A DNA stretch of 64,000 nucleotides, taken from contig OW818697.1 in the NCBI GenBank assembly GCA_942493365.1, positions 418,634 to 482,633 on the forward strand, written 5' to 3'. A program made the translations under genes and the position numbers. Below are positions 29,039 to 64,000 of the stretch, one piece after another. The notes below the pieces were generated by a model. That model was not told where the DNA came from, did not search any database, and saw only the letters and a list, made by a program, of their open reading frames with translations. The number at the start of each line of letters is the position of its first letter. Position 1 is the first letter of the stretch. This DNA comes from an uncultured Clostridiaceae bacterium. GTDB taxonomy: Bacteria; Bacillota; Clostridia; Saccharofermentanales; UBA5734.

Positions 29039-29345
29039 GAGTAATATTATTACGATGAGCTATATCATGACATGAATGACAAAGCGCTCAACATTATAGC
29101 TGAAACAAAGAGATTAAAGCCTGTCATGCCTTGACAAAAATATGCATAAACATAATTTTATCTATAATCATATTACGTTATTGCGAAATATACTTGTTCA
29201 CAATCCGTAGACATGCTAGAATGGCAGTATAGCGGAATGTCTTTATTATGTCTTAACAGACAGGATAGAACACATCATATATAGACACTTTACAGTTTGA
29301 TGTTCGCAATATTCCAACAAATCATGACATATCATGACAAGTCGA

Positions 29346-29372
29346 TGTTGATTTAACACATGTAAATCAACA
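29346..29372. promoter_or_regulatory. 10-bp-arm inverted repeat upstream of the adhesin gene
   Basis: TGTTGATTTA and TAAATCAACA flank the 7-nt spacer acacatg. The repeat lies about 60 nt upstream of the ATG at 29431, in an AT-rich leader. Confidence 0.35.
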
Positions 29373-29430
29373 CCAATGACTTTTGGCGGTCTTTAGCTTG
29401 ATCTGGATTTGAAGGGACGGTACCTGTTCA

Positions 29431-32400: not shown

Positions 32401-35400
32401 GTCAACGATGCGCCGGTTGCCGCAGACGACGAGGCTGCAACACAAGAAGAACAGGCCGTAACGATCCCTGTTTTGACCAACGACAGTGATCCTGATGGTG
32501 ACAATCTGACCGTAACCGCCATCACACAGCCAGCTAACGGTTCAGCTGTAAAGAACGCAGAGGGTACCGTGACTTACACGCCGAAAGCGAATTTTTCAGG
32601 GACGGACACTTTGACCTACACCATCAGTGACGGTAATGGCAAGTCGGACACCGCCATCGTGACCATTTTGGTCGGCGAAGTCAACGATGCGCCGATCGCC
32701 AATGACGATATCGGCAACACCCCTGAAGACACGCCCGTGGCTATCTCAGTGCTGACCAATGATACTGATGTCGACGGCGGCGCGCTGAGCATCACGTCGG
32801 CAACCAACCCCGCCCATGGCGCGGCTGTTATCAACGCCGACGGGACAATGACCTATGTGCCAGATGCAAACTATTTTGGCACCGATACCTTTGAATACAC
32901 CATCACCGACGGTCGCGGCGGTTCCGACACCGCGCGGGTAACCATCACGGTCACCCCGGTCAACGACGCGCCGATTGCCAATGACGACACCCGCAACACA
33001 CCGGAAGATACAGCGATCAAGATCGGTGTTCTGAGCAATGACGCCGATGTCGAAGGCAGCCCCCTGACCGTAATCGCTGTAACTGAACCGACCCATGGAG
33101 CGGCTGTGATCCAACCCAACGGCACAGTTACCTATACGCCACATGCCAACTTCAATGGCATCGACACCTTTATTTACACGATCAGCGACGGCCAGGGCGG
33201 CAGCGACACAGCGACCGTCACCGTCAACGTTATCCCGATCAATGATGCGCCGCTTGCAACAGACGATACCGCGACAACCCCCGAAGATATGCCGGTTAAT
33301 GTCAATGTTCTGGCTAACGACCACGATGTTGACGGCAATCCGCTGATTGTCACGCTGATCAGTGATCCTACCCACGGTTCGGCAGTCATCAATCCCGATG
33401 GAACGGTAACCTACACCCCGGATATCAACACCAATGGCACTGATACCTTCGAATACACTGTCAGCGACGGCCAGGGCGGCACTGATACGGCGACCGTGAC
33501 CATCACGGTTACCCCACTTAATGATGCGCCGGTTGCGGTCAATGACATACGTTCAACCCCCGAAGACACCACGCTTATCATCGACGTTTTGACCAATGAC
33601 AGTGACCCCGATGGCGATCCGCTAACCGTAATCTTTGTCAGCGAGCCCGCCCACGGCTCGGCAACGATTAATCCGGACGGAACGATCACCTACAAGCCAG
33701 ACAGCAACTATATTGGTGACGACACCTTGATCTATACCGTCAGCGACGGCCAAGGTGGCATTTGTACGGCCAGCGTGACCATCACGGTTGGCGGTGTCAA
33801 TGATGCGCCTGTCGCGGCGGACGACACGAGAACAACCCCAGAAGACACATCGATCAAAATTGATGTGCTGACCAACGACACAGACTCCGATGGTGACGCC
33901 CTGGCAGTTGTGTCGATCACCGATCCGGCCAATGGCACAGCAGTTATCAATACCGATGGCACCGTGACTTACACACCGGCTGCTGATTTTAACGGCACTG
34001 ACAGCTTCGACTACACGATCACCGATGGCAACGGCGGCACGGATACCGCCACGGTCACCGTTACGATTTTGTCAATCAATGACGCCCCAGTCGCGGCTGA
34101 CGATACTGCTATTATCAGCGAAGATACACCGATAACGATTGCTGTTCTGACTAACGACAAAGATGCCGACCATGATCCGCTGACCGTCGTTTCTGTGACT
34201 GACCCTGCCCATGGCAGTGTGGTCATCAACCCAGATGGCACCGTGACCTATACACCGGATGCTAACTTTATTGGCACCGATACCTTTGAGTATACGGTCA
34301 GTGACGGCCACGGCGGCACCGATACCGCGATCGTGACCATCACTGTCAATCCGATCAACGACGCTCCTGTTGCTGTCAACGACGCTCGTACCACGCCTGA
34401 AGACACGCTGGTGATCATCGACGTGCTGACCAATGACAGTGATCCGGACGGCGATGCGCTGACGGTTATTTCAACGAGCACGCCGGCCAACGGCAATGCA
34501 GTCATCAATGCCAACGGCACCGTAAACTATACGCCGAACGCCAATTTCAATGGCACCGACAGCTTTACCTACACCATCAGCGATGGGCAAGGCGGCATTG
34601 CCACGGCTACAGTGAGCATAACGGTCACATCGGTCAATGACGGCCCTGTTGCAGCTGATGATGCCAGAACGACCCCAGAAGACGTGGCGGTAAACGTCGA
34701 TGTTCTGACCAACGATAGCGATGTCGACGGCGATCTCCTGACGGTTACCGGGACAACCAATCCCACGAACGGCACGGCCTTAATCAATCCCGACGGAACG
34801 ATCACCTACACACCGGACGTCAATTTCTTTGGCACAGACACTTTTGACTACACCATCAGCGATGGCAACGGCGGCACGGACACAGCGACGGTCACGGTCA
34901 ATGTCAGCAGAATTATTGTTCCTGACATCAAGATCAGCAAGCAGGTCTTAAACAGCACCCAAAGCGGCATCTTTGCCGACATGGCAGACCTGTACGTGGG
35001 AGAAACCGCGCAGTATCTGATCATTGTTGAAAACAATGGCAACACACCGCTGATCAATGTCATGGTGACTGACAACCACGCACCTGACGGCACCGTTGTG
35101 ACGGCATCAAACGGCGACAGCCTGATGTGGACGCACAATGCCAGTGGCATCGCAAGCCTTAATCTGGGGGACTTAGCCGTCGGCGAAAAGATCGAACTTC
35201 GCTACGATTATGTGACCAGCACGAGCGACCTGGAAAATTCGACGGTCATCAACAGAGCGGACGTCGTGGCTACGCCAGAAATCCCATCGAACCTCAGCGA
35301 GGTCACGGATTTTGCCACGGCAATTATCAACATCAGTGCGACGCCGCTTAGCGTTTCCGGTATCTCAGTTGACAATCAGGTCAAAAATCTGACCAGCGGC

Positions 35401-35907
35401 GGTCCTTATGCTGATCTGGCCAGCGGCATTGTCGGTGATACCTTCCGCTATAACGTAACCGTTAAAAACACAGGACTTCTCGACTTGACAGCAGTTAAAG
35501 TTTACGACAATCGCGTTGTACCGGGAACCGTAATAACCAACGTCACAGCTGGCACAACGGCCATCTGGCAGACGAGCGTTGACGGACGCGCCTACTTTGT
35601 TTTAGGCAACCTGGCCCCCGGCGCCTTGGTGAACTTCACCTACGATGTTATCACCACCAGTGCCGATGCCAACAACATCCGCTTGAACACGACGCAGGCT
35701 ATCGGCATTGTCACCATCACCATGAACGATCAGCAAATCGTTGAACTCAGCGATGATGCCATCGCCACAGCACTTGTTGACCAAATTCCGACCACGGGCG
35801 AGAACGATCTGACCACCCTGCTGGGCAGCATGCTGCTGCTTGCAGCCGCTGTTCTCATCTTCTTCCGCCTGCGTCGCCGTGACAGAGGTCTTCCGTCTGA
35901 CCACTGA
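29431..35907 (+). CDS. giant sortase-anchored surface adhesin (2x vWA, cadherin-like tandem repeats, DUF11-like repeats, xPxTG anchor)
   Basis: The 2158-aa product has a signal peptide and two MIDAS motifs ('VLVLDVSPSMD', 'ILVMDVSNSM'). It has nine 'VNDAP.A.DD...TPEDT...DVLTNDSD.DGD.LTV...G..V.N.DGT.TYTP...F.G.D.F.YT.SDG.GG.DTATVT' units. The C-terminus is 'IPTTG' (35785-35799), a hydrophobic helix and 'RLRRRDR'. Confidence 0.88.
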   Translation: MKNFFGKNSSNTTCEPPKVMPTKMLSIFLAAVLLCSMIPLAPQVLAVASAGEVVLSKTATPLTPERTSEISLSVVGTPLTSSQAVDIVLVLDVSPSMDTALGTSTRMGVMKAAAKSFISEVLPAGSNNKVSLVAFSGVQNDAAWNDGKIVQTFSNSISTLNTSIDNITNSVNFIGYTNMEAGFYHADGALDAANGARTTAKKVVVYMSDGAANLYYNATGNTVYNTTTSVTEAIGAAQTLLTNHPGTLVYTVGLSDGTNSADIAKVLNASNQGLYPTKYFDVNSADGLTSVYNYLADTINQIANTAMVTDLLPDGVTFDGFIATPYGTTASAAGNTVTWTIPVITTSPLTLTYRVKVDESIYGGVYTNTKAEIAFKPIAENHFYDAVLTSGYANLTFPKPIIPAPPIANDDAYVSISGNAVIVSAAGILSNDEAVDLRANGDGTTATPVSGSVSLVSGPSHGSLALNADGSFTYLPTADYEGIDTFVYKIFSDVTIIGQGTVRVEDTATVTITSYPEGMPGEIDLSKNANSTATDREFEVTLTAVGNKPETAPPTDYILVMDVSNSMRYLLNSDVEGTPSRLSVMKEAAAVFVSEVLAAGNDNRVAVVSYSSDITGATTDRWNDSVINQGFSSNATTVNAAIAALIKRNATNTEAGFYNADNVLDTARAAAQKIVVFMSDGGANQYYDSNGNTIGVGSEPFNQTATNEAIASAKLLKANHPGTQIFTMGIGQDLYGYIAKVMNPAAPDDYQEKFFQVLTASDASAIYTELTQPSSTIATDAVVTDILPAGVSYAGSLTASAGTTATINGNTITWTLGSITDQTATLTYRVKVDDSIYGGVYTNQSAVLKFRPAIGSPLYTPDTSGFAYLDYPLPIVAVGPLAVDDAYSVDESQTLTIPAPGVLANDPTTILRADGSGTTATATNQSVSLDVAPVNGTLTQNANGSFSYTPVYGFYGIDTFVYRVFSDVTIDGKGTVRLEDTAVVTIMVNYVNDAPVAADDEAATQEEQAVTIPVLTNDSDPDGDNLTVTAITQPANGSAVKNAEGTVTYTPKANFSGTDTLTYTISDGNGKSDTAIVTILVGEVNDAPIANDDIGNTPEDTPVAISVLTNDTDVDGGALSITSATNPAHGAAVINADGTMTYVPDANYFGTDTFEYTITDGRGGSDTARVTITVTPVNDAPIANDDTRNTPEDTAIKIGVLSNDADVEGSPLTVIAVTEPTHGAAVIQPNGTVTYTPHANFNGIDTFIYTISDGQGGSDTATVTVNVIPINDAPLATDDTATTPEDMPVNVNVLANDHDVDGNPLIVTLISDPTHGSAVINPDGTVTYTPDINTNGTDTFEYTVSDGQGGTDTATVTITVTPLNDAPVAVNDIRSTPEDTTLIIDVLTNDSDPDGDPLTVIFVSEPAHGSATINPDGTITYKPDSNYIGDDTLIYTVSDGQGGICTASVTITVGGVNDAPVAADDTRTTPEDTSIKIDVLTNDTDSDGDALAVVSITDPANGTAVINTDGTVTYTPAADFNGTDSFDYTITDGNGGTDTATVTVTILSINDAPVAADDTAIISEDTPITIAVLTNDKDADHDPLTVVSVTDPAHGSVVINPDGTVTYTPDANFIGTDTFEYTVSDGHGGTDTAIVTITVNPINDAPVAVNDARTTPEDTLVIIDVLTNDSDPDGDALTVISTSTPANGNAVINANGTVNYTPNANFNGTDSFTYTISDGQGGIATATVSITVTSVNDGPVAADDARTTPEDVAVNVDVLTNDSDVDGDLLTVTGTTNPTNGTALINPDGTITYTPDVNFFGTDTFDYTISDGNGGTDTATVTVNVSRIIVPDIKISKQVLNSTQSGIFADMADLYVGETAQYLIIVENNGNTPLINVMVTDNHAPDGTVVTASNGDSLMWTHNASGIASLNLGDLAVGEKIELRYDYVTSTSDLENSTVINRADVVATPEIPSNLSEVTDFATAIINISATPLSVSGISVDNQVKNLTSGGPYADLASGIVGDTFRYNVTVKNTGLLDLTAVKVYDNRVVPGTVITNVTAGTTAIWQTSVDGRAYFVLGNLAPGALVNFTYDVITTSADANNIRLNTTQAIGIVTITMNDQQIVELSDDAIATALVDQIPTTGENDLTTLLGSMLLLAAAVLIFFRLRRRDRGLPSDH
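32401..34911 (+). repeat. nine head-to-tail 279-bp coding repeats inside the adhesin gene
   Basis: Unit starts read off the sequence are 32401, 32680, 32959, 33238, 33517, 33796, 34075, 34354 and 34633. The period is exactly 279 bp (93 codons). Confidence 0.9.
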
Positions 35908-46627: not shown

Positions 46628-46693
46628 GATGGTCGCCTCCCTTTTTGCATGATTATTATAACATATGCTTGACAAATACAAACGAAGGATGTA

Positions 46694-46731
46694 TTGTCTC
46701 ATTGTACTAAGCGCTTAGTACAATGAGACAA
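46694..46731. promoter_or_regulatory. perfect 38-bp palindrome, candidate GntR/YtrA operator
   Basis: TTGTCTCATTGTACTAAGC|GCTTAGTACAATGAGACAA has 19-bp arms with no mismatch. It lies between the divergent lipoprotein C gene and the gntR gene and contains the GT-N-AC type core. Confidence 0.7.
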
Positions 46732-46748: not shown

Positions 46749-47111
46749 ATGCTGATTGAGTTTTCTGGCGATACTCCGATCTACCTGCAGCTGATCCAGA
46801 TCGTCCGACAGGCCATTATCACCGGCGAGATGCCACCGGGCAGCAAAATACCCAGCGTTCGCGATCTGGCTGTTCAGTATGGCGTGAACCCCAACACGGT
46901 GCAGCGATCACTTGCCGAACTGGAACGCGACGGCCTCGTCTACGCGGAGCGAACCGCAGGCCGTTTCATCACGACCGATGCTATCCTGATTGAAAAAACC
47001 CGCAGCGAACTGGCTGACCTGCAAATCGACGCGTTCATCGCGCAGATGAAAGTGCTCGGCTACAGCCAGGAGCAACTGCAAAACATTTTGTCGAAGAAAT
47101 GGAGTGAATAA
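46749..47111 (+). CDS. GntR family transcriptional regulator (YtrA-like short subfamily)
   Basis: The 120-aa product has 'G.K.PSVRDLA...GVNPNTVQR.L.ELE..GL'. A GGAGGTG ribosome-binding site lies upstream. Confidence 0.85.
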   Translation: MLIEFSGDTPIYLQLIQIVRQAIITGEMPPGSKIPSVRDLAVQYGVNPNTVQRSLAELERDGLVYAERTAGRFITTDAILIEKTRSELADLQIDAFIAQMKVLGYSQEQLQNILSKKWSE

Positions 47112-47112
47112 G

Positions 47113-47820
47113 ATGTCCATCATAGAAATCAGTCATCTTAACAAGTCTTATGGCCCAACCAAAGTGCTGGCCGACCTCTCGCTGACCGCCGACTCGGGCC
47201 GCATCATCGGCCTCCTGGGGCCCAATGGCTGCGGCAAAAGCACCTTGCTCAAAATCATGGCCGGCCTGATCAGCGATTATGAGGGCGACATTCGGATCGA
47301 CGGTCAGCACCCTGGATTACACACCAAGAGCGTGGTTTCCTATCTGCCCGAGAAGACCTACCTCAGCGCCTGGCAGCGGCCAATCGACACGTTCGATTAT
47401 TTTGCTGACTTTTACGCCGATTTCGATCGAGCCAAGGCCGACGACATGCTCCAGCGGTTCCGGCTCAAACCCAAACAGCGAATCGGCACCATGTCCAAAG
47501 GCATGCAGGAAAAATTGCAGCTGGTCCTGGTCATGGCCCGACAGGCCAAAGTCTATTTGTTGGACGAGCCGATGGGCGGTGTTGATCCGGCGGCGCGCAG
47601 CGCCATACTGGACCTGGTGCTGCAAAACTATCAGGAAGATGCCGTGATGCTGCTGGCCACCCACCTGATTCAAGATGTCGAGCGAATTTTTGACCATGCC
47701 ATCATTCTGGGTTTCGGCGAAAAGATTATTGACGAAGATGTCGACACCATTCGCCAACAATACGGCAAAAGTGTCGATGAGGTCTTCCGGGAGGTGTTCA
47801 AATGTTCATTAAACTTTTAA
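47113..47820 (+). CDS. ABC transporter ATP-binding protein
   Basis: It has Walker A 'GPNGCGKST', the signature 'MSKGMQEKL' and Walker B 'YLLDEP'. The ATG at 47113 follows GGAG. Confidence 0.88.
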   Translation: MSIIEISHLNKSYGPTKVLADLSLTADSGRIIGLLGPNGCGKSTLLKIMAGLISDYEGDIRIDGQHPGLHTKSVVSYLPEKTYLSAWQRPIDTFDYFADFYADFDRAKADDMLQRFRLKPKQRIGTMSKGMQEKLQLVLVMARQAKVYLLDEPMGGVDPAARSAILDLVLQNYQEDAVMLLATHLIQDVERIFDHAIILGFGEKIIDEDVDTIRQQYGKSVDEVFREVFKCSLNF

Positions 47821-48623
47821 AGCATGAATTCCGCGCGACCCGCCGGACGGTACCGTTTATTTATCTTGCGACGATGTTCATGATTCTGGTCAATCTTTTG
47901 ACCCGGCAACTCGACATTGGCTGGGTGTCCGGCTTCATGATGATTATGATGATCGGCTTTGGCGCCGTGCAGATCCTGATGACCTACATTGTGGTGTTTG
48001 CTCGCTATTACAAAAATCTCTACAATTCCGAAGGATACCTGACACACACACTGCCGGTGCCGCCGCGCAAGCTGCTGGCCAGCAAGGCTGTGGTCGCCTT
48101 CTTCTGGCTACTGATCAGTTACATCCTGATGGCAGGCGTCATCGTAACCACCTTGATCCTGATCATCAGCGAGCAGGCTCATAATCTCAGCCTGCCCCAG
48201 GTCCTTGACCAACTGATCGCCGGATCCGGCATACAGAAAACATACTTTTACGCCGCCGCCGCCGGCTTTGCCGCTTATCTTTTGCTGGCCATCGCCAACT
48301 TGCTGGCCCAGGTCTATTTCGCCATCACGGTGGGCAATTTAGCGGTGTTTCACAAGATGGGCATCGCCGCGCCGATTCTGGCCTACCTGAGCGTCTATTT
48401 CGCGCAGCAAACCCTGACCCTCGTGGCCATCGTGTTCATCCCGCTGGGCATCAAACCCGTCGGCGATACGCTGCAAATTGTGCCAGAGGGAATGCTGACG
48501 ACGATCAGCAATCCAGACTACGTGATCATCGGCTTGGGCCCGGTTTTTATCATGGTGCTGATGACCGTCGCGCTGCTCTATGCAACCTCGCGTTTCATGG
48601 CGCGCGGCACCAGCCTCAAATAG
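47802..48623 (+). CDS. ABC transporter permease-like membrane protein
   Basis: The 273-aa product has about 6 TM helices and overlaps the ATPase gene by 19 nt. The gene context is ytrAB-like. Confidence 0.65.
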   Translation: MFIKLLKHEFRATRRTVPFIYLATMFMILVNLLTRQLDIGWVSGFMMIMMIGFGAVQILMTYIVVFARYYKNLYNSEGYLTHTLPVPPRKLLASKAVVAFFWLLISYILMAGVIVTTLILIISEQAHNLSLPQVLDQLIAGSGIQKTYFYAAAAGFAAYLLLAIANLLAQVYFAITVGNLAVFHKMGIAAPILAYLSVYFAQQTLTLVAIVFIPLGIKPVGDTLQIVPEGMLTTISNPDYVIIGLGPVFIMVLMTVALLYATSRFMARGTSLK

Positions 48624-50794: not shown

Positions 50795-51691
50795 TTAGTC
50801 AAGACGTTCCAATTGGGAGCCGTCCGGCTGAATGCGGTAGCGCACAGCCGAATCATCACGCTCGGGTCCGGCAAAACTGGTGAAATAAAGCCAGCCGCCC
50901 GATTCAGACATGCCCCAGGCGTAATTGCTATAAATGGTGGTGGTATCATGCTTGAAAATATCGTAGCGATAAATATGAGCCGAATCATCGACGGCATAAG
51001 CTGAATAGAATTTGTACTGACCGATTTTGACAAAGAGCGAACCGGGGTGGTTAATGTTGTTGATCGAGCCCGGATTGGCGAGCGGCACGTCATCATCTTC
51101 CAATTGAACGATGGTCGAAGTCGGCTGATTTGATTTGAGCATCAGATGAACATTGTCGCCAGCGGCGAGCAGAATCGTGATGAAGAGAAAAACGCCCAAA
51201 ACAGCTGCGACAGACGCTGCGCCGATGCGCAGCCAGCGCGGATCGTAGCGAACCCTGAGCGGTTTGACAAATTCAATCTGCTCATCAATCGCCAAATCGG
51301 TCTGGTCGACATCCTGCGTTTCGAATTCGCTGCGGTTGATGATCAAGATGCGCCAGTTAGCGTCCTCGACAATTTTGGTGATGGTCCTGGCAATGACACC
51401 AAGATCAAGCACGGTATCGACACGCGTTCCGTCGCTGGTCAGTTTGGAGAAAATAACCTTGCAATACAAAACCGGATCGCTGTCAGCGACCTTCTCGGCG
51501 ATCATAACTTTTGAAGCAGCCGAATCAAGCTTGACCGTCAACTCATAGTGGATCGGATCAACATGCCAGTTCCAAAGCGCGTCGACAAAATCACATTTTA
51601 CCGAAAGGGCGTGCGTACCTTGTAAAACGTATGGAACGCCCAAACGAGCGAGTTCATTGGAAATCTGACGCAGAATCGAAAGATGATTCAT
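50795..51691 (-). CDS. single-pass membrane protein with short DUF5050-like C-terminal region
   Basis: The 298-aa product has a cytoplasmic N-domain and the TM helix 'AASVAAVLGVFLFITILLAAG'. The C-terminal 'IYRYD...GGWLYF...YRIQPDGS' resembles beta-propeller blades of DUF5050. Confidence 0.5.
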   Translation of the reverse strand: MNHLSILRQISNELARLGVPYVLQGTHALSVKCDFVDALWNWHVDPIHYELTVKLDSAASKVMIAEKVADSDPVLYCKVIFSKLTSDGTRVDTVLDLGVIARTITKIVEDANWRILIINRSEFETQDVDQTDLAIDEQIEFVKPLRVRYDPRWLRIGAASVAAVLGVFLFITILLAAGDNVHLMLKSNQPTSTIVQLEDDDVPLANPGSINNINHPGSLFVKIGQYKFYSAYAVDDSAHIYRYDIFKHDTTTIYSNYAWGMSESGGWLYFTSFAGPERDDSAVRYRIQPDGSQLERLD

Positions 51692-51804
51692 GGACTGCCT
51701 CCAGGAACGATTTTTACCAGTTTAACACAACACAATGACGTTTTGCATAACATTATTCACAATTCACGAATAATGTTAGGCAAAACGCTTAGGCGTGAAC
51801 AGGG

Positions 51805-52197
51805 TCATCCACTGGCGCCAGCGGTTGTGTCGACGATGGTCGTGGTGGCGACTGTCGTCGTCGCCGCTGTCGTCGGTGCTGTCGTCGCCGCTGTCGTCGG
51901 TGCACCCGTCGTTGGCGCGGCAGTCGGCTTGGTCGTGGGCTTGACGGTCGTGGGCTTGACGGTCGTGGCAGGCGTCGTTGACCCCACGGATGGCACGGTG
52001 CTCGTCGCAATGACTGTCTCGGTTGACGTGGTGTCGCTGGGGGCCGTTACGGATTCGCCAGTGATCGTGGACACGGCGACGGCGATCTCAGTCGGGCTGT
52101 AATACTTTGAAACCTGAAGGCCATAAAAAAGCGAAAAGCCAACAACGAATTCAACAAACAGCGTGACGAGCAAAACAAATTTGAACTTCGCTATCAT
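51805..52197 (-). CDS. membrane-anchored Thr/Pro-rich low-complexity protein
   Basis: The N-terminal helix 'FKFVLLVTLFVEFVVGFSLF' is followed by a long T/P/A/V-rich tail. The start at 52197 was chosen to avoid overlap with the upstream PepSY gene; the ORF opens at 52401. Confidence 0.4.
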   Translation of the reverse strand: MIAKFKFVLLVTLFVEFVVGFSLFYGLQVSKYYSPTEIAVAVSTITGESVTAPSDTTSTETVIATSTVPSVGSTTPATTVKPTTVKPTTKPTAAPTTGAPTTAATTAPTTAATTTVATTTIVDTTAGASG

Positions 52198-52201
52198 AGG
52201 G

Positions 52202-52717
52202 CTAATCATCCTCTGCTTCGTCATCGTGCGAATCGTCTTCGCTCGCAAGCGTCTCTCGCTCCAACTCGAGGATCGAGCCGGTGACTGCATGAATATCGAT
52301 CTCGTAGCGATAATTACCAGAGATGAGTTCGATTTCGTAAACAGGCGGATTGTCATCGGCATCCAGACTGACTTCCAAGAAGGCGGGACTGCCGCCGACA
52401 TAACCGGCCGCGATCGCTCTGGCCTGTGCGGCCGATATCAATCCCGTAACCGGTGCCGGGGCAATCGTATCCGCAGGCGAAGCAATCGTTGTCTCGACAG
52501 GCAACGTTGGCACGGTCGTTTCGCTGGGCGCGGCGGTGTCGCTGGGCGCGGTCGGTTCCGTTGGCGCTTCGGTACCGGGTTGGGTCGGTGCTTCGATCGA
52601 CGGACTCGTGCGGATCGGCCCCGTAAGCAGTTCAGCGGCCATGGCCCCGATGCCGCCAGCGGCCAGCAATATGACCAGTATCGTGCCGACCAGCGGCAAA
52701 ATCTGTTTCTTCATCAA
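52202..52717 (-). CDS. PepSY domain membrane-anchored protein
   Basis: It has a signal anchor and a Pro/Thr linker. 'ISAAQARAIAAGYVGG...EVSLDADDNPPVYEIEL..G..RYEIDIHAVTGSILE' is the PepSY pattern. Confidence 0.7.
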   Translation of the reverse strand: MMKKQILPLVGTILVILLAAGGIGAMAAELLTGPIRTSPSIEAPTQPGTEAPTEPTAPSDTAAPSETTVPTLPVETTIASPADTIAPAPVTGLISAAQARAIAAGYVGGSPAFLEVSLDADDNPPVYEIELISGNYRYEIDIHAVTGSILELERETLASEDDSHDDEAEDD

Positions 52718-58289: not shown

Positions 58290-58338
58290 CCGGTTTCGCG
58301 TAAACCAAAGGTAACGGATTACACAGGAGGGGATTAAT

Positions 58339-58614
58339 ATGACAACCGGATCAAGTGGAAATACCAATAAATCAAACAGCCGAAAACTGTCCAAGTGGGG
58401 GAACGGCGTAGGCATTCGAATTCCAAAAGAATTTCTTGCGGCAGCAAATCTTCATACAGAGGATGAAGTCAGTATTTCTGAGGTTAATGGCCAAATCATT
58501 ATCGAGAAGCGCTTTAAACACAAAACCTTCGCTGAGCGAATGGCAGGGTACAACGGTGACTACAAAGCGACCGAGTTTGATTGGGGTAAACCGGTCGGAA
58601 ATGAGGTTTGGTGA
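58339..58614 (+). CDS. mazE: AbrB/MazE/SpoVT-family antitoxin
   Basis: 'LSKWGNGVGIRIPKEFL......EDEV.I....G.III' is the swapped-hairpin MazE pattern. Confidence 0.75.
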   Translation: MTTGSSGNTNKSNSRKLSKWGNGVGIRIPKEFLAAANLHTEDEVSISEVNGQIIIEKRFKHKTFAERMAGYNGDYKATEFDWGKPVGNEVW

Positions 58615-58664
58615 TGTTGAGGGCGCCAGAACAAGGCGATATTATTCAGGCCATCATCGAATAG
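58614..58664 (+). pseudogene. truncated mazF/pemK-like toxin stub (16 codons)
   Basis: A TGATG stop/start overlap with mazE is followed by 'MLRAPEQGDIIQAIIE*'. 'P..GDI' matches the MazF N-terminus, and the rest of the gene is absent. Confidence 0.5.
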
Positions 58665-58689
58665 ACAGCTCTATTTTTGCGCACGCTAT

Positions 58690-59907
58690 TTACTTGATTT
58701 TTAATTCAAACGCCCACCGGGCGACCTCGTCCTCGCCAAAGCGCGTCCGGCAGTGTTCGATAAATTCAGCAAAGCCATGCGTCAGCGTCGCCAGTGGCGG
58801 CGCGCTCAGCAGCTCGATCTGCGGCGTCACGCCGCGCCCCAGCATGCGCGCCAGTTGCTCGTCCAGCCCCGGCAAATCCACCGCGTCCAGCGGCAGCCGG
58901 ACGATCACGTCGGCCTCGGCCGCCTGACGAATAACCGCCAACTGCTGACGGACCTGGGCAAAACCGACCGTCGTCAGGTCCGGCCCCGCCTTCTCCAGCG
59001 TCTGGTGCCCGCGCCGCCCCGGATCGCCCGGCATTAGCCCGCCCGGCCCGGCCTGCGCAATATAGCGGTGACGGTACTGCTGCGGCGACAGCAGGTATTT
59101 CTCGCGAAACAACGTGCTGAAGGCCGACAGATTGGGGAAGCCGCTGTTGAAGGCGATCTTGGCGATCGTCTCGTCCGAATGGCACAACGCGTGCATGGCC
59201 GAATCCAGCCGCACCTCGTTCAAATAATCGATGAAATTCTCGCCCAGATGCTTCTTGGCAAAACGCGACAAATACTGCGGCGTCAGGTCAAGATATTTGG
59301 CCACCTCGACCAGCGTCACCGGCTGGCGGAAGTTTTTGTTGATGTACGTTTTGAGCAGGCGCAACCGCTGCGCGTGGCGGCCGTCGCCCTCGTCGTTCGC
59401 GTCAGCCTCAACAGCTGGCTCGCCGTCGCCAATGTCGCGATACGCAACATATTCGCTGCTCTCAACCTCGCTGTAAACCTCTTCCGGCAATTGCGACAAA
59501 TGATCCATCAGTTGATAAACCAGCGCGCCGATCTTGAAGTCGGCATCCTCGCCCATCAAGTCCTGCAAACTGGCGATCTCGGCCAGCAGGCCCTGCAGCA
59601 ACGTGTTTTGCGCCTGACAATCGTTGGCCCGGCAAATCCGCATGGTCAGCCCATTGAGGCGCGACCCGGCCATCTGCTGCTCAAAGCGCACCGACAGCAT
59701 CAGCGGCTCACCCACCGGCAAAAAGCGAATCACCGTCGACGGCTGCAACAGCGCCACATCCCCGACCGTCAACGCCACCTTCTGGCTGAACGACTCCAGC
59801 TCCAACCGCCCGGCCAACACCAGCAGCACTTCAAAACTGATGCCCGACCGCGACAACGGCTTGTTGACACGAAACAGATCAACGTCCGGCAAACCGATCA
59901 CCTCCAA
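58690..59907 (-). CDS. AraC-family regulator (cupin-like N-domain, HTH_AraC), probably 3'-truncated GH39-like sensor fusion
   Basis: The HTH is 'LVEVAKYLDLTPQYLSRFAKK...IAFNSGFPNLSAFSTLFREKY'. The protein ends 'RFGEDEVARWAFELKIK*', where GH39-type domains continue 'W.FE.WNEP'. The start is uncertain: a TTG at 59907 or the TTG at 59892 after GGAGGTG. Confidence 0.7.
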   Translation of the reverse strand: MEVIGLPDVDLFRVNKPLSRSGISFEVLLVLAGRLELESFSQKVALTVGDVALLQPSTVIRFLPVGEPLMLSVRFEQQMAGSRLNGLTMRICRANDCQAQNTLLQGLLAEIASLQDLMGEDADFKIGALVYQLMDHLSQLPEEVYSEVESSEYVAYRDIGDGEPAVEADANDEGDGRHAQRLRLLKTYINKNFRQPVTLVEVAKYLDLTPQYLSRFAKKHLGENFIDYLNEVRLDSAMHALCHSDETIAKIAFNSGFPNLSAFSTLFREKYLLSPQQYRHRYIAQAGPGGLMPGDPGRRGHQTLEKAGPDLTTVGFAQVRQQLAVIRQAAEADVIVRLPLDAVDLPGLDEQLARMLGRGVTPQIELLSAPPLATLTHGFAEFIEHCRTRFGEDEVARWAFELKIK

Positions 59908-59923
59908 CTACAAACTACGATCT

Positions 59924-59951
59924 ATTATAGTCGGAAAAGATAATAAATCAA
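59924..59951 (-). promoter_or_regulatory. SigA-like promoter for the AraC gene
   Basis: On the minus strand, TTGATT (59951-59946) is followed by a 16-nt spacer and TATAAT (59929-59924). Confidence 0.4.
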
Positions 59952-60026
59952 ACCGAAGTTTTAGCTTTTGGTGGGGAGGGGAGGAAATCAAGCCATATTC
60001 AATCATCGATTTCTGATCTGCGCATG

Positions 60027-60055
60027 TTGCAAAAATGATACACTGGGTTTATAAT
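60027..60055 (+). promoter_or_regulatory. near-consensus SigA promoter with no downstream ORF
   Basis: TTGCAA (60027-60032) is followed by a 17-nt spacer and TATAAT (60050-60055). Confidence 0.55.
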
Positions 60056-60061
60056 AAACAC

Positions 60062-60148
60062 AGGATATCACGTGAGCGATACCCAAAAGGTTAAAAGGTT
60101 TTTGTCCCAATAACCGTCGAGGTGCTTACTCGGCGGTTATTACTTTCT
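60062..60148 (+). ncRNA. candidate small antisense RNA (promoter to 13-bp hairpin)
   Basis: The predicted transcription start lies about 7 nt after the -10 element. The transcript ends in a 13-bp stem (60109-60121 pairing with 60129-60141) followed by a U-containing tail. It has no ORF and is convergent with, and overlaps, the 3' end of the small minus-strand ORF. Confidence 0.35.
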
Positions 60149-60211
60149 AGACCTATTTAGTACAACGGCACTGACCAAGACGATCAGGTACAGTACGACC
60201 AAATATTCCAT
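60140..60211 (-). CDS. 23-aa hydrophobic peptide, candidate type I toxin or small membrane protein
   Basis: The peptide is 'MEYLVVLYLIVLVSAVVLNRSRK', one TM helix with a basic tail. A GGGGG ribosome-binding site lies 9 nt upstream of the ATG at 60211, and the stop codon abuts the shared hairpin. Confidence 0.35.
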   Translation of the reverse strand: MEYLVVLYLIVLVSAVVLNRSRK

Positions 60212-60363
60212 CAAGCATCACCCCCTTTCGCAAGAAGGTGTACCGCCTTTGTGATATCCTGTGCAAGGATTATTCTATTGGAAAAACAATTGCCTGCCTA
60301 TTCGATAAACCCGAAATTTCAGTGGTTTTTCGACTTTAATTCAACTCTGTTGAGAGCGGTTGA

Positions 60364-62262
60364 TCAATCCTCGGCCAGCACAATCAGGCAATCCTGCTCG
60401 CCGAAAGTGACGATATCGCGCTTGTTGGGATTGGTGATGACCTGCAGTTGCTCCTGTCCATCGGCATCGATCGCGACCGTCTTGTAGCCGATGAATACTT
60501 CGTGCCGTTGCGCCACTGCATGGGCCACGGTGTGGAGATCGACCGGCTGGCCGAGCTGGACGTAGCCCGCGGCCGGCTTGAGGTAAATCTCCGAGCCATC
60601 GGCGTCGAGCAAGTCGGTGAAGATGGGCACCAGCAGCCGGTTCTCCGAGATCTGCGCCAACATCAGGCTGACGATGTTGTTGCTGATGACAAAGTCGCTG
60701 ACATTGGTGCCGTTGGCCAGCTTTTGATTGCGAATGTCCAGCATCTCACTGGTCACGCCAAACTTGAGGTTGTGCTTTTGCGCCAAATCCCGAATGTGCA
60801 GCAGAATCGACAGCGTCTTGGCATCGGCCAGATCGGAGCTCAAGGTGGCGTCGCTGAGGATCAGGATGTGGTTGATACCCTGCGAAACCAGTCGCTCCAG
60901 CGTTTCCCGGCGGCTGATTTTGTCCTCGACCACCTTGACACTGATGTTGGCATATGACTTGATAGCCTGCTTACCCAGCGCCGGTAGATCAACATTGTCG
61001 TTGGCAATGGTTACCGTCGAGCGGGGCGGCATATAAACATTGAGCTCGGTCAAAATGTCCGTCAGCAAAGCGTTAGAGCCCAGGATCAACAGCTGATCGT
61101 CCGCCATGGCCTTGACCGCCGTCTGCCGTGACACCAGCAAATCGCTGCGGATGGCCGGCTTGGCTGCCGGCTTGGAAGCATTATCATCGCTGGCAATCAG
61201 CACCAGCTGATCGCTTGCCGCCAGCACATCAGTTGGCGGCGGATTGAGACTGACCACCCCATCACGCACCAGACCCAGCACCGTCGAACGATCAAATGCC
61301 AGACAAGCCTCGCCAAAAGTCTGGCCGGCCAGCTCGGCAATACGCTCGATGTAAATCTCGTCGCCGGCAAAGTCAAACAGCTCCAGATAAACCGAGGACA
61401 AGCCCGGCTGATAACAAACCTGCGCCATGATCCGCGCGATGGCCTGACTGAAATTCATCACCTCAGCAAAACCCCGCCCGGCGATCTGCGCCACCTGTAA
61501 ATTGTCAGCCTCGTTGATCGCTGCGCAAATGTGAATGCTCTGACTGGCCGGGAAACGCCCGCGAATACTCGCCTGTCCCAAATAATTGGTGACCGCCAGG
61601 ATGACCCGGATGACCGATGTGTCCTCCGAAAAATTGACAATAACCGACTTGCAGGTTTCAATCGAAACCCGCGCCAGATCAAACTCCGACGCGCAATCGC
61701 CGTTGCGAACAATGATCCGGGTGTTTTTGGATTTCGGCACGCGGCGAGCAATCTGCTCCTCCATCACGCCCTTATCTTCCTGCCCCAGGACGACAACGCA
61801 GGCTCCCTTGACATTCGCATTGGCCAACTGCAACTCGGTCAACAACGAAAACACCGCTTCATTGAAGCCCAGGATCACCGTGTGCCCCTGCTCCAAAATT
61901 CGCGAACTGCCCCGGCGCAGCCTGTCCAGCCGATCCGACAAACCCGTGCTCAATATACCGATCAACGTACTGACAATGAACAAGCCCACCAGCGTCACAA
62001 GAGCGACCACCGCGATCAGGCCAACGCTGCCCGACACCCCGGCCAGATTGCCCGGGTCCAGACTGTAGGTAAACGACTTCCAGATGCCCATCAAAACAGA
62101 ATCTTCCGCCCACGCCTTATCAATGACAAAGACCGCAATGCCAGCAACAATGACCACGACAAGCGTAATCACAGCCAGCAATGCAATGAGCGCAACCGTG
62201 CCGCGGGACATGATGGTATCGATCTTATAGCGGAGACGTTCCTTGAATTTTGCTTGCTTCAT
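60364..62262 (-). CDS. CASTOR/POLLUX-related putative ion channel (TM pore region plus tandem RCK/TrkA-like domains)
   Basis: The 632-aa product has N-terminal TM helices with 'WKSFTYSLDPGN'. 'GHTVILGFN' and a second 'LLILGSN' are Rossmann-like RCK starts. Confidence 0.6.
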   Translation of the reverse strand: MKQAKFKERLRYKIDTIMSRGTVALIALLAVITLVVVIVAGIAVFVIDKAWAEDSVLMGIWKSFTYSLDPGNLAGVSGSVGLIAVVALVTLVGLFIVSTLIGILSTGLSDRLDRLRRGSSRILEQGHTVILGFNEAVFSLLTELQLANANVKGACVVVLGQEDKGVMEEQIARRVPKSKNTRIIVRNGDCASEFDLARVSIETCKSVIVNFSEDTSVIRVILAVTNYLGQASIRGRFPASQSIHICAAINEADNLQVAQIAGRGFAEVMNFSQAIARIMAQVCYQPGLSSVYLELFDFAGDEIYIERIAELAGQTFGEACLAFDRSTVLGLVRDGVVSLNPPPTDVLAASDQLVLIASDDNASKPAAKPAIRSDLLVSRQTAVKAMADDQLLILGSNALLTDILTELNVYMPPRSTVTIANDNVDLPALGKQAIKSYANISVKVVEDKISRRETLERLVSQGINHILILSDATLSSDLADAKTLSILLHIRDLAQKHNLKFGVTSEMLDIRNQKLANGTNVSDFVISNNIVSLMLAQISENRLLVPIFTDLLDADGSEIYLKPAAGYVQLGQPVDLHTVAHAVAQRHEVFIGYKTVAIDADGQEQLQVITNPNKRDIVTFGEQDCLIVLAED

Positions 62263-62320
62263 GGGGGACCTCCTGTGATGTGGGTGAGATGGGGTGATGG
62301 ATTATAACTGAAGAAGGAAC

Positions 62321-63133
62321 TTAACTTCTGACTCTCTTATTCAAGAGACTGATATCCTTTGGATCATTAACTACATGCATTTTTCGATGGCAATTCGGAC
62401 AAAGACCAACTGTGTTTTCAATGACATCTGCTCCTTTATTGGCAAGCCATTTTATATGATGAGATTCCAAATAGGGATGACCATCTTTCTTGTTAAACGG
62501 GGCAGCATTCAAACACAACTGACAGATGCCATTTGCCCGACGAATAGCATATTCGGCCACATATGGATTTCTCTCATAATATCTTGATGCGACAAAACGC
62601 TGAGAAGTAGTGGGCCGTGCTTGCTCAGCTCGAATCTGCAGATCCTGATCGGATAATCGCAACGCTGAGCGCTCAAACGACTCAGAAATATTATATTGAT
62701 CAACTTCATTTATAATTGAGGCGGTTAAGGAGATAGTCCTTAAAGGAAACATCCAAACAAGCCGCATCACACCGTCGCCATCGGGCTGATAGTCCTGGTA
62801 AGGCTCACCACAAAGATTCACCAGCCCACGAAACGTATAATGTCCGGCCCGGATAACTTCAAAAAGAAAAACAGAAACGCCGTTAGTCTTTGATTCAGAT
62901 AGCGTCCGATTTGCACCAGTCAATTTTTGATCACCAATTAAACCCATCCCGGTATAGTGAATAATGTCGCCATCCCATCGGTCGTGGTAGACACCCTTGG
63001 TATTTGTAGTAATAATTAGCGAATTTGTTCTGTTTGATTTGCGCATGCCGCCCTGCGGACTACAAGTAAAAATACGCAACAACTCGCGCGAGTCAATGAC
63101 TTGCCCAATCTGCAATCCCGGATCAAAAGGCAT
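62321..63133 (-). CDS. SRA(YDG)-like domain fused to an HNH nuclease, candidate modification-dependent (type IV) restriction endonuclease
   Basis: The N-terminal half has 'GDIIHYTGMGLIGDQKLTGANRTLSESKTNGVSVFLF', the SRA pattern 'Y.G.G..GDQ.L..(G)N..L..S'. The C-terminal half has 'CQLC....PF......PYLE.HHI..L...G.D...N...LCPNCHRK.H' (HNH). Confidence 0.65.
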   Translation of the reverse strand: MPFDPGLQIGQVIDSRELLRIFTCSPQGGMRKSNRTNSLIITTNTKGVYHDRWDGDIIHYTGMGLIGDQKLTGANRTLSESKTNGVSVFLFEVIRAGHYTFRGLVNLCGEPYQDYQPDGDGVMRLVWMFPLRTISLTASIINEVDQYNISESFERSALRLSDQDLQIRAEQARPTTSQRFVASRYYERNPYVAEYAIRRANGICQLCLNAAPFNKKDGHPYLESHHIKWLANKGADVIENTVGLCPNCHRKMHVVNDPKDISLLNKRVRS

Positions 63134-63321
63134 AAAATTACCTCAAATAAAATAAAATGATACATGCCGGAGGCTATTTAGTTAGGGAAATTATAACATA
63201 GTTGTTTTGTTATTGATATTTGAATGAAACGGACAAATAATGTTTTCAACAGAAGAAAAAACGAGAATAAAGTGGAAATTATGAAACATAATTAATAGCT
63301 GAAAATAGCCGAGATAACTGA

Positions 63322-63535
63322 ATACAATCCACAACAAATGCATTCGAATGACTGAATCGTGAAATCCTAAAACGAACACGCGTGGTCGGAACATTCTCGG
63401 ACGGCAAATCAGCCCTGATGCTGGTTTGCGTCCTGCTTCGCTATGTTGAAAGCTGAGCATGGGTCATAAGGCTCATCTGGATATGTGAAATCTGGACATC
63501 TGGGAGGTGGACGCGGAACTGGACGCCGGCTGACG
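63322..63535 (+). mobile_element. IS256-family transposase 3' relic (pseudogene fragment)
   Basis: It translates as 'IQSTTNAFE*LNREILKRTRVVGTFSDGKSALMLVCVLLRYVES*', matching the conserved C-terminal 'TTNA.E.LN.E...R.RVVG.FP...S.L.L' block. There is an in-frame TGA at 63349-63351, further decay downstream, and no N-terminal part. Confidence 0.6.
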
Positions 63536-63673
63536 GCTGGCTACCAAGCGGCAAATGTGCGAAAGATCATTGACGGTACCTTATTATGTGTTGGATTATA
63601 TTTAATAGTGTCATATAATATACATAAATTATAGCTAATAGATTTATTACAAAAAGTGAGGAATAAGGGATAT

Positions 63674-64000
63674 ATGAACAATCAACCGTCTTCCCAGTAT
63701 GAAAATGAATATATTTCACCTGTATTTATTGAACAATTCGAACCTGTTGATCAAGAAAATGAAAAAGAAGAAGATATTTTTGAGATTGATAGAATCAACC
63801 TGTCAAATATGGCAATTATGGGTACAGATTGGACAACTGAAACTATTGTATCTCAGATACAGAAGGGGAATATTCGTCTAGATCCTGAGTTTCAAAGAAG
63901 AGATGCGTGGACAATAAAAACTAAAAGTAGGTTTATTGAATCATTATTTTTAGGCTTGCCAATTCCTCAAATTATTCTTGCTGAACATAAAGAGCAGAAG
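63674..64000 (+). CDS. DUF262 (GmrSD/ParB-like nuclease N-domain) protein, 3' end outside window
   Basis: The frame is open from the ATG at 63674 to the window edge; it is absent from the supplied ORF track because no stop is reached. 'FQRRDAWTIKTKSRFIESLFLGLPIPQIIL' matches the DUF262 N-terminal motif. A GAGGAATAAGGGA ribosome-binding site lies upstream. Confidence 0.65.
   Translation, partial: MNNQPSSQYENEYISPVFIEQFEPVDQENEKEEDIFEIDRINLSNMAIMGTDWTTETIVSQIQKGNIRLDPEFQRRDAWTIKTKSRFIESLFLGLPIPQIILAEHKEQK

Follow-up and report, generated by a model that had tools for sequence, protein, structure and literature searches.

A candidate orphan type I toxin-antitoxin-like module with a 23-residue hydrophobic peptide and a predicted end-paired mRNA in an uncultured Clostridiaceae bacterium

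In the par module of the enterococcal plasmid pAD1, the convergent transcripts Fst RNA I and RNA II have a common hairpin as their meeting point, a short repeat is found at the 5' end of both genes, and structure at the 5' side dampens translation of the toxin. The 3'-overlapping systems of Gram-positive bacteria, such as TxpA/RatA, BsrG/SR4, BsrE/SR5 and YonT/SR6 from Bacillus subtilis, where type I toxins range from about 30 to 59 amino acids (aa), and the CD2517.1/RCd8-type systems from Clostridioides difficile, encode toxins with one hydrophobic helix and, after it, a basic C-terminus, and use an antisense promoter stronger than that of the toxin; RNase III cleaves the duplexes between toxin mRNA and antisense RNA. 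In AapA1/IsoA1 from Helicobacter pylori and hok/Sok from plasmid R1, the extreme 5' end of the full-length mRNA pairs with its extreme 3' end, which closes the molecule, and the Shine-Dalgarno (SD) sequence is sequestered; in AapA1, this 5'-3' interaction holds the full-length mRNA inert (PMC5416894). More generally, T1TAdb describes type I modules by a toxin of 20-60 aa, an mRNA of 150-400 nucleotides (nt) and an antisense RNA of 60-200 nt, and further by a 5'-3' long-distance interaction, by pairing of the SD with an anti-SD and, for the Gram-positive families, by an antisense RNA lying at the 3' side (PMC8594479). Here we analyze a 64,000-nt stretch of DNA, hereafter the window, from an uncultured Clostridiaceae bacterium (contig OW818697.1 of assembly GCA_942493365.1, positions 418,634 to 482,633), and focus on a cassette housed in the 456-nt spacer (59908-60363) that separates two minus-strand genes, one encoding an AraC-family regulator and the other a CASTOR/POLLUX-type RCK channel. 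The cassette comprises a small open reading frame (ORF) for a hydrophobic peptide and a convergent promoter, and we give a probability of about 0.5 to the reading that it is an orphan type I toxin-antitoxin (TA)-like module. This reading is favored because the architecture fits the T1TAdb descriptors and because the peptide has the properties by which Fozo et al. recognize type I toxins.

The ORF proposed by an earlier, sequence-only reading of this DNA was found on the minus strand with the coordinates and the 23-aa translation correct as read from the sequence (Table 1), and the GGGGG ribosome-binding site announced 9 nt before the ATG lies at 60225-60221; an in-frame TTG at 60214 offers an alternative start. 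The hydrophobic stretch and basic tail that had been described are equally present, with 13 of the 15 residues of LVVLYLIVLVSAVVL hydrophobic and a C-terminal tail NRSRK. With these features and its length, the peptide matches the toxins delineated by Fozo et al., which have fewer than 70 aa, a hydrophobic stretch and a polar or charged C-terminus (PMC2887945). The extended SD sequence was evaluated as a duplex with a Firmicute-type 16S rRNA 3' end, and its energy of -22.3 kcal/mol surpasses that of all 43 real window genes compared (median -9.8, best -20.1 kcal/mol). Chance expectation was drawn from 5000 first-order Markov surrogates of the 456-nt spacer. Any ORF of 18-60 aa in which a 15-residue window attains a hydropathy of 3.0 or more occurred in 9/5000 surrogates; in a single one of these nine, the SD was also at least as strong as -10 kcal/mol, and a value of -15 was never attained. 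Furthermore, a combined filter on hydropathy and SD applied across the 64 kb retained this ORF as its sole intergenic match. Since the combination of ORF and SD lies beyond what the surrogates produce and the SD is the strongest in the window, the ORF is very probably a real, translatable gene.

Facing this gene, the plus-strand promoter TTGCAA-17-TATAAT that had been suggested is confirmed with a scan score of 10/12, and the 91-nt plus RNA predicted from it is free of ORFs, as had also been claimed (folding z = -2.5). A plus promoter of at least 10/12 within the 120-nt zone that would yield a 3'-overlapping antisense RNA was obtained in 2.9% of the surrogates, and in 16% when it was allowed anywhere in the spacer. 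On the minus strand, a promoter-like site precedes the predicted start of the peptide mRNA; altogether, three sites of at least 9/12 were seen in the scanned region against 1.2 expected. The 13-base-pair (bp) hairpin exists as had been described; designated P5 here, it has a loop of 7 nt and shares sequence with the stop codon. Its assignment as terminator of both transcripts is not supported, the terminator scan calling it on neither strand and locating a separate terminator-like hairpin on the minus strand at 60084-60063. On the plus strand, P5 forms a perfect stem, including one G.U pair (-19.8 kcal/mol), and is followed by the tail ACUUUCUAG; on the minus strand, the stem contains a C.A mismatch (-14.8 kcal/mol). 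As it is followed there by GGGACAAAAACC, P5 is not a minus-strand terminator, and the minus transcript is predicted to continue past it as far as the hairpin at 60084-60063, which uses the left arm of the inverted repeat considered below and is mutually exclusive with the terminal helices P1 and P2. On the plus strand, P5 is likely the 3' hairpin of the antisense RNA, with a read-through form extending to ~60275 being possible according to the predictions. This genome seems to have few canonical terminators in general.

The perfect 13-nt inverted repeat reported at 60059-60071 and 60251-60263 is present; its arms extend to 24 nt at 79% complementarity and flank a segment of 179 bp. Perfect inverted repeats of at least 13 nt within 300 nt occur at three loci in the window against 0.33 expected, and the 13-nt identity alone is only mildly significant; the 24-nt extension and the position of the repeat weigh more. 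Two roles had been offered for it. A long-range pairing of the 5' end with the 3' end agrees with the predicted fold, in which the 13-mer is the core of a closing helix of 14 + 8 bp (P1 and P2) in the minus RNA. A shared operator, on the other hand, finds no support, the search of the window revealing no further copy of the 13-mer near any promoter. Of the type I TA-like locus as first proposed, the peptide gene facing a convergent antisense promoter whose transcript would overlap the mRNA 3' end therefore stands, and the shared terminator and shared operator do not.

The minus RNA spanning 60265-60050 (216 nt) has a minimum free energy of -85.6 kcal/mol compared to -55.0 +/- 3.8 kcal/mol for its dinucleotide shuffles (z = -8.15), and the plus strand over 60050-60265 gives z = -5.31. 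When the inverted repeat is left out by restricting the calculation to the inner interval 60105-60245, the values are z = -3.85 for the minus strand and -2.13 for the plus strand. After adjustment for GC content, no other of 591 overlapping 216-nt tiles of the window is as far out in folding energy as the cassette (residual -31 kcal/mol). The predicted start at ~60265 and the U-rich tail fall at the two ends of the closing helix, and P2 contains two G.U pairs whose plus-strand counterparts are A.C mismatches. Inside this closed structure, a local hairpin (P3) capped by a GNRA-type tetraloop pairs the SD with an upstream anti-SD sequence. The predicted unpaired probability of the SD stays below 0.01 in the full-length, 3'-truncated, nascent and channel read-through RNAs wherever the anti-SD is kept, and the SD becomes accessible (0.29) in silico only after loss of the 5' 35 nt. 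The burial of the ribosome-binding site by P3 is thus supported by the folding model. The two structural properties listed for toxin mRNAs, SD/anti-SD pairing and a 5'-3' interaction, are found here in the predicted P3 and in P1 with P2, respectively.

Table 1. Features of the cassette and of its two borders (UTR, untranslated region; P1 to P5 are predicted RNA helices; L002 and L003 are loci carrying homologous AraC genes)
Feature	Position	Strand	Description
ORF for the 23-aa peptide	60211-60140 (including stop)	minus	MEYLVVLYLIVLVSAVVLNRSRK; ATG at 60211, TAA at 60142-60140
Extended SD sequence	60217-60229	minus	GAAAGGGGGUGAU; contains GGGGG; duplex energy -22.3 kcal/mol
Near-consensus promoter	60027-60055	plus	TTGCAA (60027-60032), 17-nt spacer, TATAAT (60050-60055); faces the ORF; 10/12
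Promoter-like site	60300-60272	minus	TAGGCA, 17-nt spacer, TAGAAT; 9/12, weak; predicted start ~60265, one nt before P1
Predicted antisense RNA, ~90 nt	~60062 to ~60150	plus	defined by promoter and hairpin; complementary to mRNA 3' UTR, P5 and last codons
Predicted 3' end of the peptide mRNA	60050-60084	minus	3' arms of P2 (60075-60082) and P1 (60058-60071), or local hairpin; U-rich tail UGUGUUUAUUAU
Terminator-like hairpin, 9 bp	60084-60063	minus	called by the scan; -11.9 kcal/mol; followed by UGUGUUUAUU
P1, closing helix, 14 bp	60264-60251 with 60071-60058	minus	5' arm GCACAGGAUAUCAC, contains the right-hand 13-mer; joins the predicted transcript ends
P2, 8 bp	60247-60240 with 60082-60075	minus	5' arm GGCGGUAC; prolongs P1 past a 3x3 internal loop
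P3, SD-sequestering hairpin	60239-60220	minus	anti-SD ACCUUCUU (60239-60232), GCGA loop (60231-60228), SD AAGGGGGU (60227-60220); -11.7 kcal/mol
P4, imperfect long hairpin	coding region	minus	start-codon region paired with stop-codon region
P5, hairpin, 13 bp and 7-nt loop	arms 60109-60121 and 60129-60141	both	overlaps the stop codon
Linker, mostly single-stranded	60083-60108	both predicted RNAs	candidate first-contact site
AraC promoter	59951-59924	minus	TTGATT, 16-nt spacer, TATAAT; kept in L002 and L003, both of which lack the cassette upstream
AraC-family regulator gene	58690-59889/59907	minus	one border of the spacer
CASTOR/POLLUX-type RCK channel gene	60364-62262	minus	stop codon at 60364; assigned by Pfam; other border of the spacer

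The predicted sizes and architecture of the cassette fit the generic type I descriptors (PMC8594479), and each of the systems introduced above shares part of its design. The predicted layout is that of par in its convergent transcripts meeting at a common hairpin, in the repeat at the 5' end of both genes and in the 5' structure damping translation. However, the par repeats are direct in the DNA and therefore complementary between the two RNAs, whereas those of the cassette are inverted, so that both RNAs carry the same 5' sequence and the repeats pair within one RNA. Moreover, the peptide matches none of the Fst/Ldr models of Pfam and NCBIfam, and the common hairpin lacks a U tract on the toxin strand, unlike that of par. 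The single hydrophobic helix with its basic end and the dominance of the antisense promoter recall the 3'-overlapping systems of B. subtilis and C. difficile, but no sequence similarity to them was found, including with the Rfam antitoxin models, the C. difficile toxins are longer (50-53 aa), and the predicted overlap of ~90 nt scarcely reaches the ORF. The predicted closed mRNA with its sequestered SD is akin to AapA1 and hok, and the AapA1 toxin, at 30 aa, comes near the size of the present peptide. Both of these systems belong to Gram-negative hosts and their antisense RNAs pair with the 5' region of the mRNA rather than with the 3' region. In addition, the long-distance interaction of AapA1 itself hides the SD and trimming of the 3' end activates the mRNA, whereas the cassette would use a local anti-SD hairpin and no 3' truncation frees its SD in silico. 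Finally, the Ibs/Sib systems of Escherichia coli and Salmonella likewise have a very short hydrophobic toxin, IbsA being given as 19 aa in a preprint (bioRxiv 10.1101/2025.05.26.656083), but they are enterobacterial, show no sequence similarity to the cassette, and their Sib antisense RNA covers the entire ORF.

If the cassette is indeed such a module, it could operate as follows. The weak minus promoter would deliver at a low rate an mRNA of ~215 nt (from ~60265 to 60050) encoding a single-helix membrane peptide with a basic tail, whose toxicity would be exerted at the membrane. End-to-end pairing through P1 and P2 would stabilize this mRNA and keep it near-inert, and within P3 the upstream anti-SD ACCUUCUU would hide the unusually strong SD so that the mRNA would be almost untranslated. 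The stronger convergent plus promoter would produce an antisense RNA of ~90 nt ending at the 13-bp hairpin and pairing fully with the 3' UTR and the last codons of the mRNA. First contact would probably involve the complementary hairpin loops or a 24-nt single-stranded linker; indeed, the mean unpaired probability of the linker (60086-60109) is 0.5-0.8 in both predicted RNAs, and the mutually complementary P5 loops (60122-60128) are also largely unpaired in both. On the model of TxpA/RatA, BsrG/SR4 and the C. difficile systems, this contact would spread into a long duplex that would be degraded. Possible routes of activation are processing of the 5' end or competition from the very strong pairing between the SD and the 16S rRNA.

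Relatives of the cassette were searched in several ways. Neither Pfam (E up to 1) nor NCBIfam (E up to 10) gave a family match for the peptide, including Fst/Ldr, Hok, TisB, Ibs and TxpA, profile searches with a 23-aa query being of low power. Rfam, which holds 13 type I antitoxin families (PMC8594479), returned nothing relevant at E up to 10 in 59500-60700, and no Rfam family matched at gathering score across the whole window. No match to the peptide or the cassette was found in plasmids and phages by tblastn and blastn, nor in viral and metagenome contigs to a degenerate back-translation of MEYLVVLYLIVL or to the repeat pair with a gap of 165-195 nt, and 5.8 billion proteins yielded no hit to a query made of two head-to-tail copies of the peptide; these are weak negatives, since ORFs of fewer than 30 aa are seldom called and the contig scans demanded exact patterns. 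The conservation in related genomes that the sequence-only reading had put forward as a check was not encountered, the peptide, the hairpin and the cassette all being without homologue in any collection searched.

The flanking genes have relatives. The nearest AraC homologue (P0002; loci L002-L004) is 65% identical, and what is common comprises the AraC promoter and coding region. Homology on this side ends at ~59957, ~95 nt short of the cassette, with nothing further upstream in common, and the same flank in the nearest relative (L002) contains other accessory genes, including a PhD/ParE pair; judging from these alignments, the cassette occupies a variable flank. The nearest channel homologues (L005, L007 and L008) are 52-58% identical and their downstream regions are unrelated; no small ORF comparable to the peptide follows the channel gene in these three loci. 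A scan of genome contigs with the channel protein retrieved only a relative at 33% identity.

Several points weigh against a type I module. Without homologues, there is neither conservation nor covariation and the case rests on a single sequence, of which the 64-kb window holds one copy. The toxin-side promoter is weak, at 9/12. The U tract that follows P5 on the plus strand is poor and the hairpin is not called as a terminator; furthermore, the plus -10 box is complementary to the U-rich tail of the peptide mRNA and could merely be the complement of that tail. The folding z-score is partly due to the inverted repeat by which the region was chosen, and the strand difference in raw folding energy, 19 kcal/mol, is equalled in 8.6% of the tiles. 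Because such a difference is common in this genome, the raw strand asymmetry was not counted as evidence and composition-corrected z-scores were preferred. Finally, none of the 3' truncations folded in silico frees the SD, so that the activation step of hok and AapA1 is not reproduced.

These points bear on the other explanations to be considered, the most serious of which, although we hold it unlikely, is a genuine gene for a small membrane protein that is not toxic but regulatory or accessory, possibly co-transcribed with the upstream channel gene. The structured mRNA would then serve stability and low translation only, and the plus promoter would be spurious or modulatory. The evidence from the ORF, the SD and the mRNA structure applies equally to such a gene, and many small hydrophobic proteins of bacteria, for example KdpF, AcrZ and MgtS, are non-toxic. 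Read-through from the channel gene is possible because no convincing intrinsic terminator lies between its stop codon and the cassette, and the fold persists in read-through transcripts. An accessory subunit of the channel is at odds with the lack of synteny and of a comparable ORF at the three homologous channel loci, a harmless protein leaves the near-consensus convergent promoter in the right place unexplained (p ~0.03), and it is toxin mRNAs that characteristically combine a heavily sequestered SD with paired 5' and 3' ends. That the parts came together by chance in an AT-rich spacer, with a fortuitous ORF and with the repeat and hairpin as terminator or structural debris, is improbable. 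It would draw on the 0.33 perfect 13-nt inverted repeats expected within 300 nt per window, on the 16% of surrogates having a promoter-like site of at least 10/12 somewhere, on the selection of the best-looking spot out of 64 kb and on the failure to find anything conserved in the collections searched. What it does not readily yield is the SD, as 0/5000 surrogates gave an ORF with a value of -15 kcal/mol or lower against the -22.3 observed, nor the top folding outlier of the window at z = -8.15 on the minus strand, nor the coincidence of promoter positions, transcript ends and helix ends.

Bracketing by inverted repeats, 13 nt perfect and 24 nt at 79%, is also what an invertible DNA switch would display, with the repeats acting as recombination sites and a flip of the 179-bp segment shifting the ORF, in a phase-variable manner, from the weak right-hand promoter to the near-consensus left-hand one. 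Each arm indeed has an inward-facing promoter directly beyond it, and the layout comes close to symmetry, with each -10 box also serving as the U-rich tail of the opposite transcript. Such a switch is nonetheless very unlikely: no promoter-like site occurs inside 60072-60250, both sites being outside the arms; no recombinase domain was detected in the 16 neighboring proteins scanned, though a trans-acting recombinase could lie anywhere in the genome; the mismatches of the extended repeat are G.U-compatible on the minus RNA, which points to selection at the RNA level; and neither orientation was found in viral or metagenome contigs. The near-symmetry of inward promoters outside the arms and of -10 boxes doubling as U-rich tails also suggests a hybrid, whose odds we place slightly lower still, in which inversion would swap the promoters driving the toxin and antisense strands and so give a phase-variable type I toxin. 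A leader peptide or attenuator for the AraC-family gene that lies downstream is no more probable than the simple switch. While 12 of the 23 codons specify Leu, Val or Ile, the stop codon overlaps P5, hairpins follow the ORF on the AraC strand and ~110 nt separate the terminator-like hairpin at 60084-60063 from the AraC promoter beyond it, the AraC gene owns this promoter and keeps it in relatives devoid of the cassette, inspection found no alternative antiterminator pairing, and a sequestered SD is the opposite of what a sensing leader requires. The slimmest chance goes to a miniature inverted-repeat transposable element or other mobile-element remnant of ~205 bp with 13-bp terminal inverted repeats. 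These repeats are present and the flank is variable and island-like, but no second copy was seen in the window or in plasmids, phages, viral or metagenome contigs, the flanks ...ATAATAAA and CAAGGATT... are unlike and show no target-site duplication, and the interior harbors a well-formed gene.

The surroundings of the candidate TA module deserve a brief description. Coding regions have a GC content of ~55-67% versus 38-45% for the spacer. The AraC promoter is positioned between the cassette and the AraC start codon. Between the cassette and this promoter, a C-rich tract, CCUCCCCUCCCCACC, occupies 59975-59992 on the minus strand and reads on the plus strand as an SD-like GGGGAGGGGAGG that is not followed by a start codon. 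The 10-nt sequences AAATCAAACC and AAATCAAGCC (59945-59954 and 59985-59994, plus strand) form a direct repeat whose copies are 40 nt apart, one of them overlapping the AraC -35 box; this repeat could bind a regulator. The AraC protein aligns with P0002 over aa 1-331, diverges after that and has no counterpart to the C-terminal ThiF domain of this 581-aa relative, which looks like an AraC-ThiF fusion truncated in the window by an insertion or a deletion. At the position where homology to the relative is lost, a low-GC patch (42-47%, 58290-58700) contains a plus-strand ORF (58339-58614) for a MazE/AbrB-type antitoxin-like protein (PF04014, E = 1e-7), which stands alone without a toxin partner. 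In L002, a gene of the 23S-rRNA-intervening-sequence-protein family (PF05635) lies just upstream of AraC, between two tandem-repeat arrays (2379-2474 and 2907-3075) of 35/36-nt repeats that are 98-99% identical within an array, the two arrays being mutually reverse-complementary by eye. On the channel side, GC content drops to 26-47% over 62200-64000. The minus-strand ORF 62321-63133 found there has a clear HNH nuclease domain and weak SAD/SRA similarity, which suggests a modification-dependent restriction enzyme, and past it the window ends in very AT-rich DNA with short ORFs only; from its composition and content, this region may be a horizontally acquired island adjoining the channel gene and the cassette.

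Other structured elements were noticed elsewhere in the window. A perfect 38-bp palindrome, TTGTCTCATTGTACTAAGC followed by GCTTAGTACAATGAGACAA (46694-46731), comes directly after a promoter-like TTGACA, 17-nt spacer, TATTGT (46669-46697). Closely behind the palindrome follow AGGAGGTGA and an ATG at 46750, and an ABC-transporter pair (47104-48623) lies downstream; its placement makes the palindrome a candidate operator or 5' mRNA hairpin. A long, nearly perfect plus-strand hairpin, GUUUUGCAUAACAUUAUUCA...UGAAUAAUGUUAGGCAAAAC (51739-51787), is located between the ORFs 50795-51691 and 51805-52401; behind it, the latter ORF contains a GC-rich stretch in which GUCGUC is highly repeated, this area being the second strongest GC-adjusted folding outlier of the window. 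Furthermore, an 880-nt low-GC spacer (28552-29430) with strong plus-strand folding asymmetry (tiles 28513-28944) precedes a 2158-aa ORF (29431-35907, plus strand).

New type I families are reported regularly, and no long-standing question is opened by the cassette. Should the type I reading hold, however, the cassette would be the founder of a new family of type I toxins, in a high-GC, Clostridia-like lineage that has been poorly sampled; the genes flanking it have their nearest relatives at only 55-65% identity. Its 23-aa toxin would rank among the shortest known. The module would merge the 3'-overlapping antisense RNA of Gram-positive systems with the 5'-3' end pairing and the sequestered SD for which hok and AapA1 are the best-known cases. 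Since the blindness of homology searches is the main obstacle to cataloguing type I modules, it would also mean that such modules may be recognized from a single sequence by the architecture of their mRNA, namely the strength of the SD, the anti-SD hairpin and the pairing of the ends.

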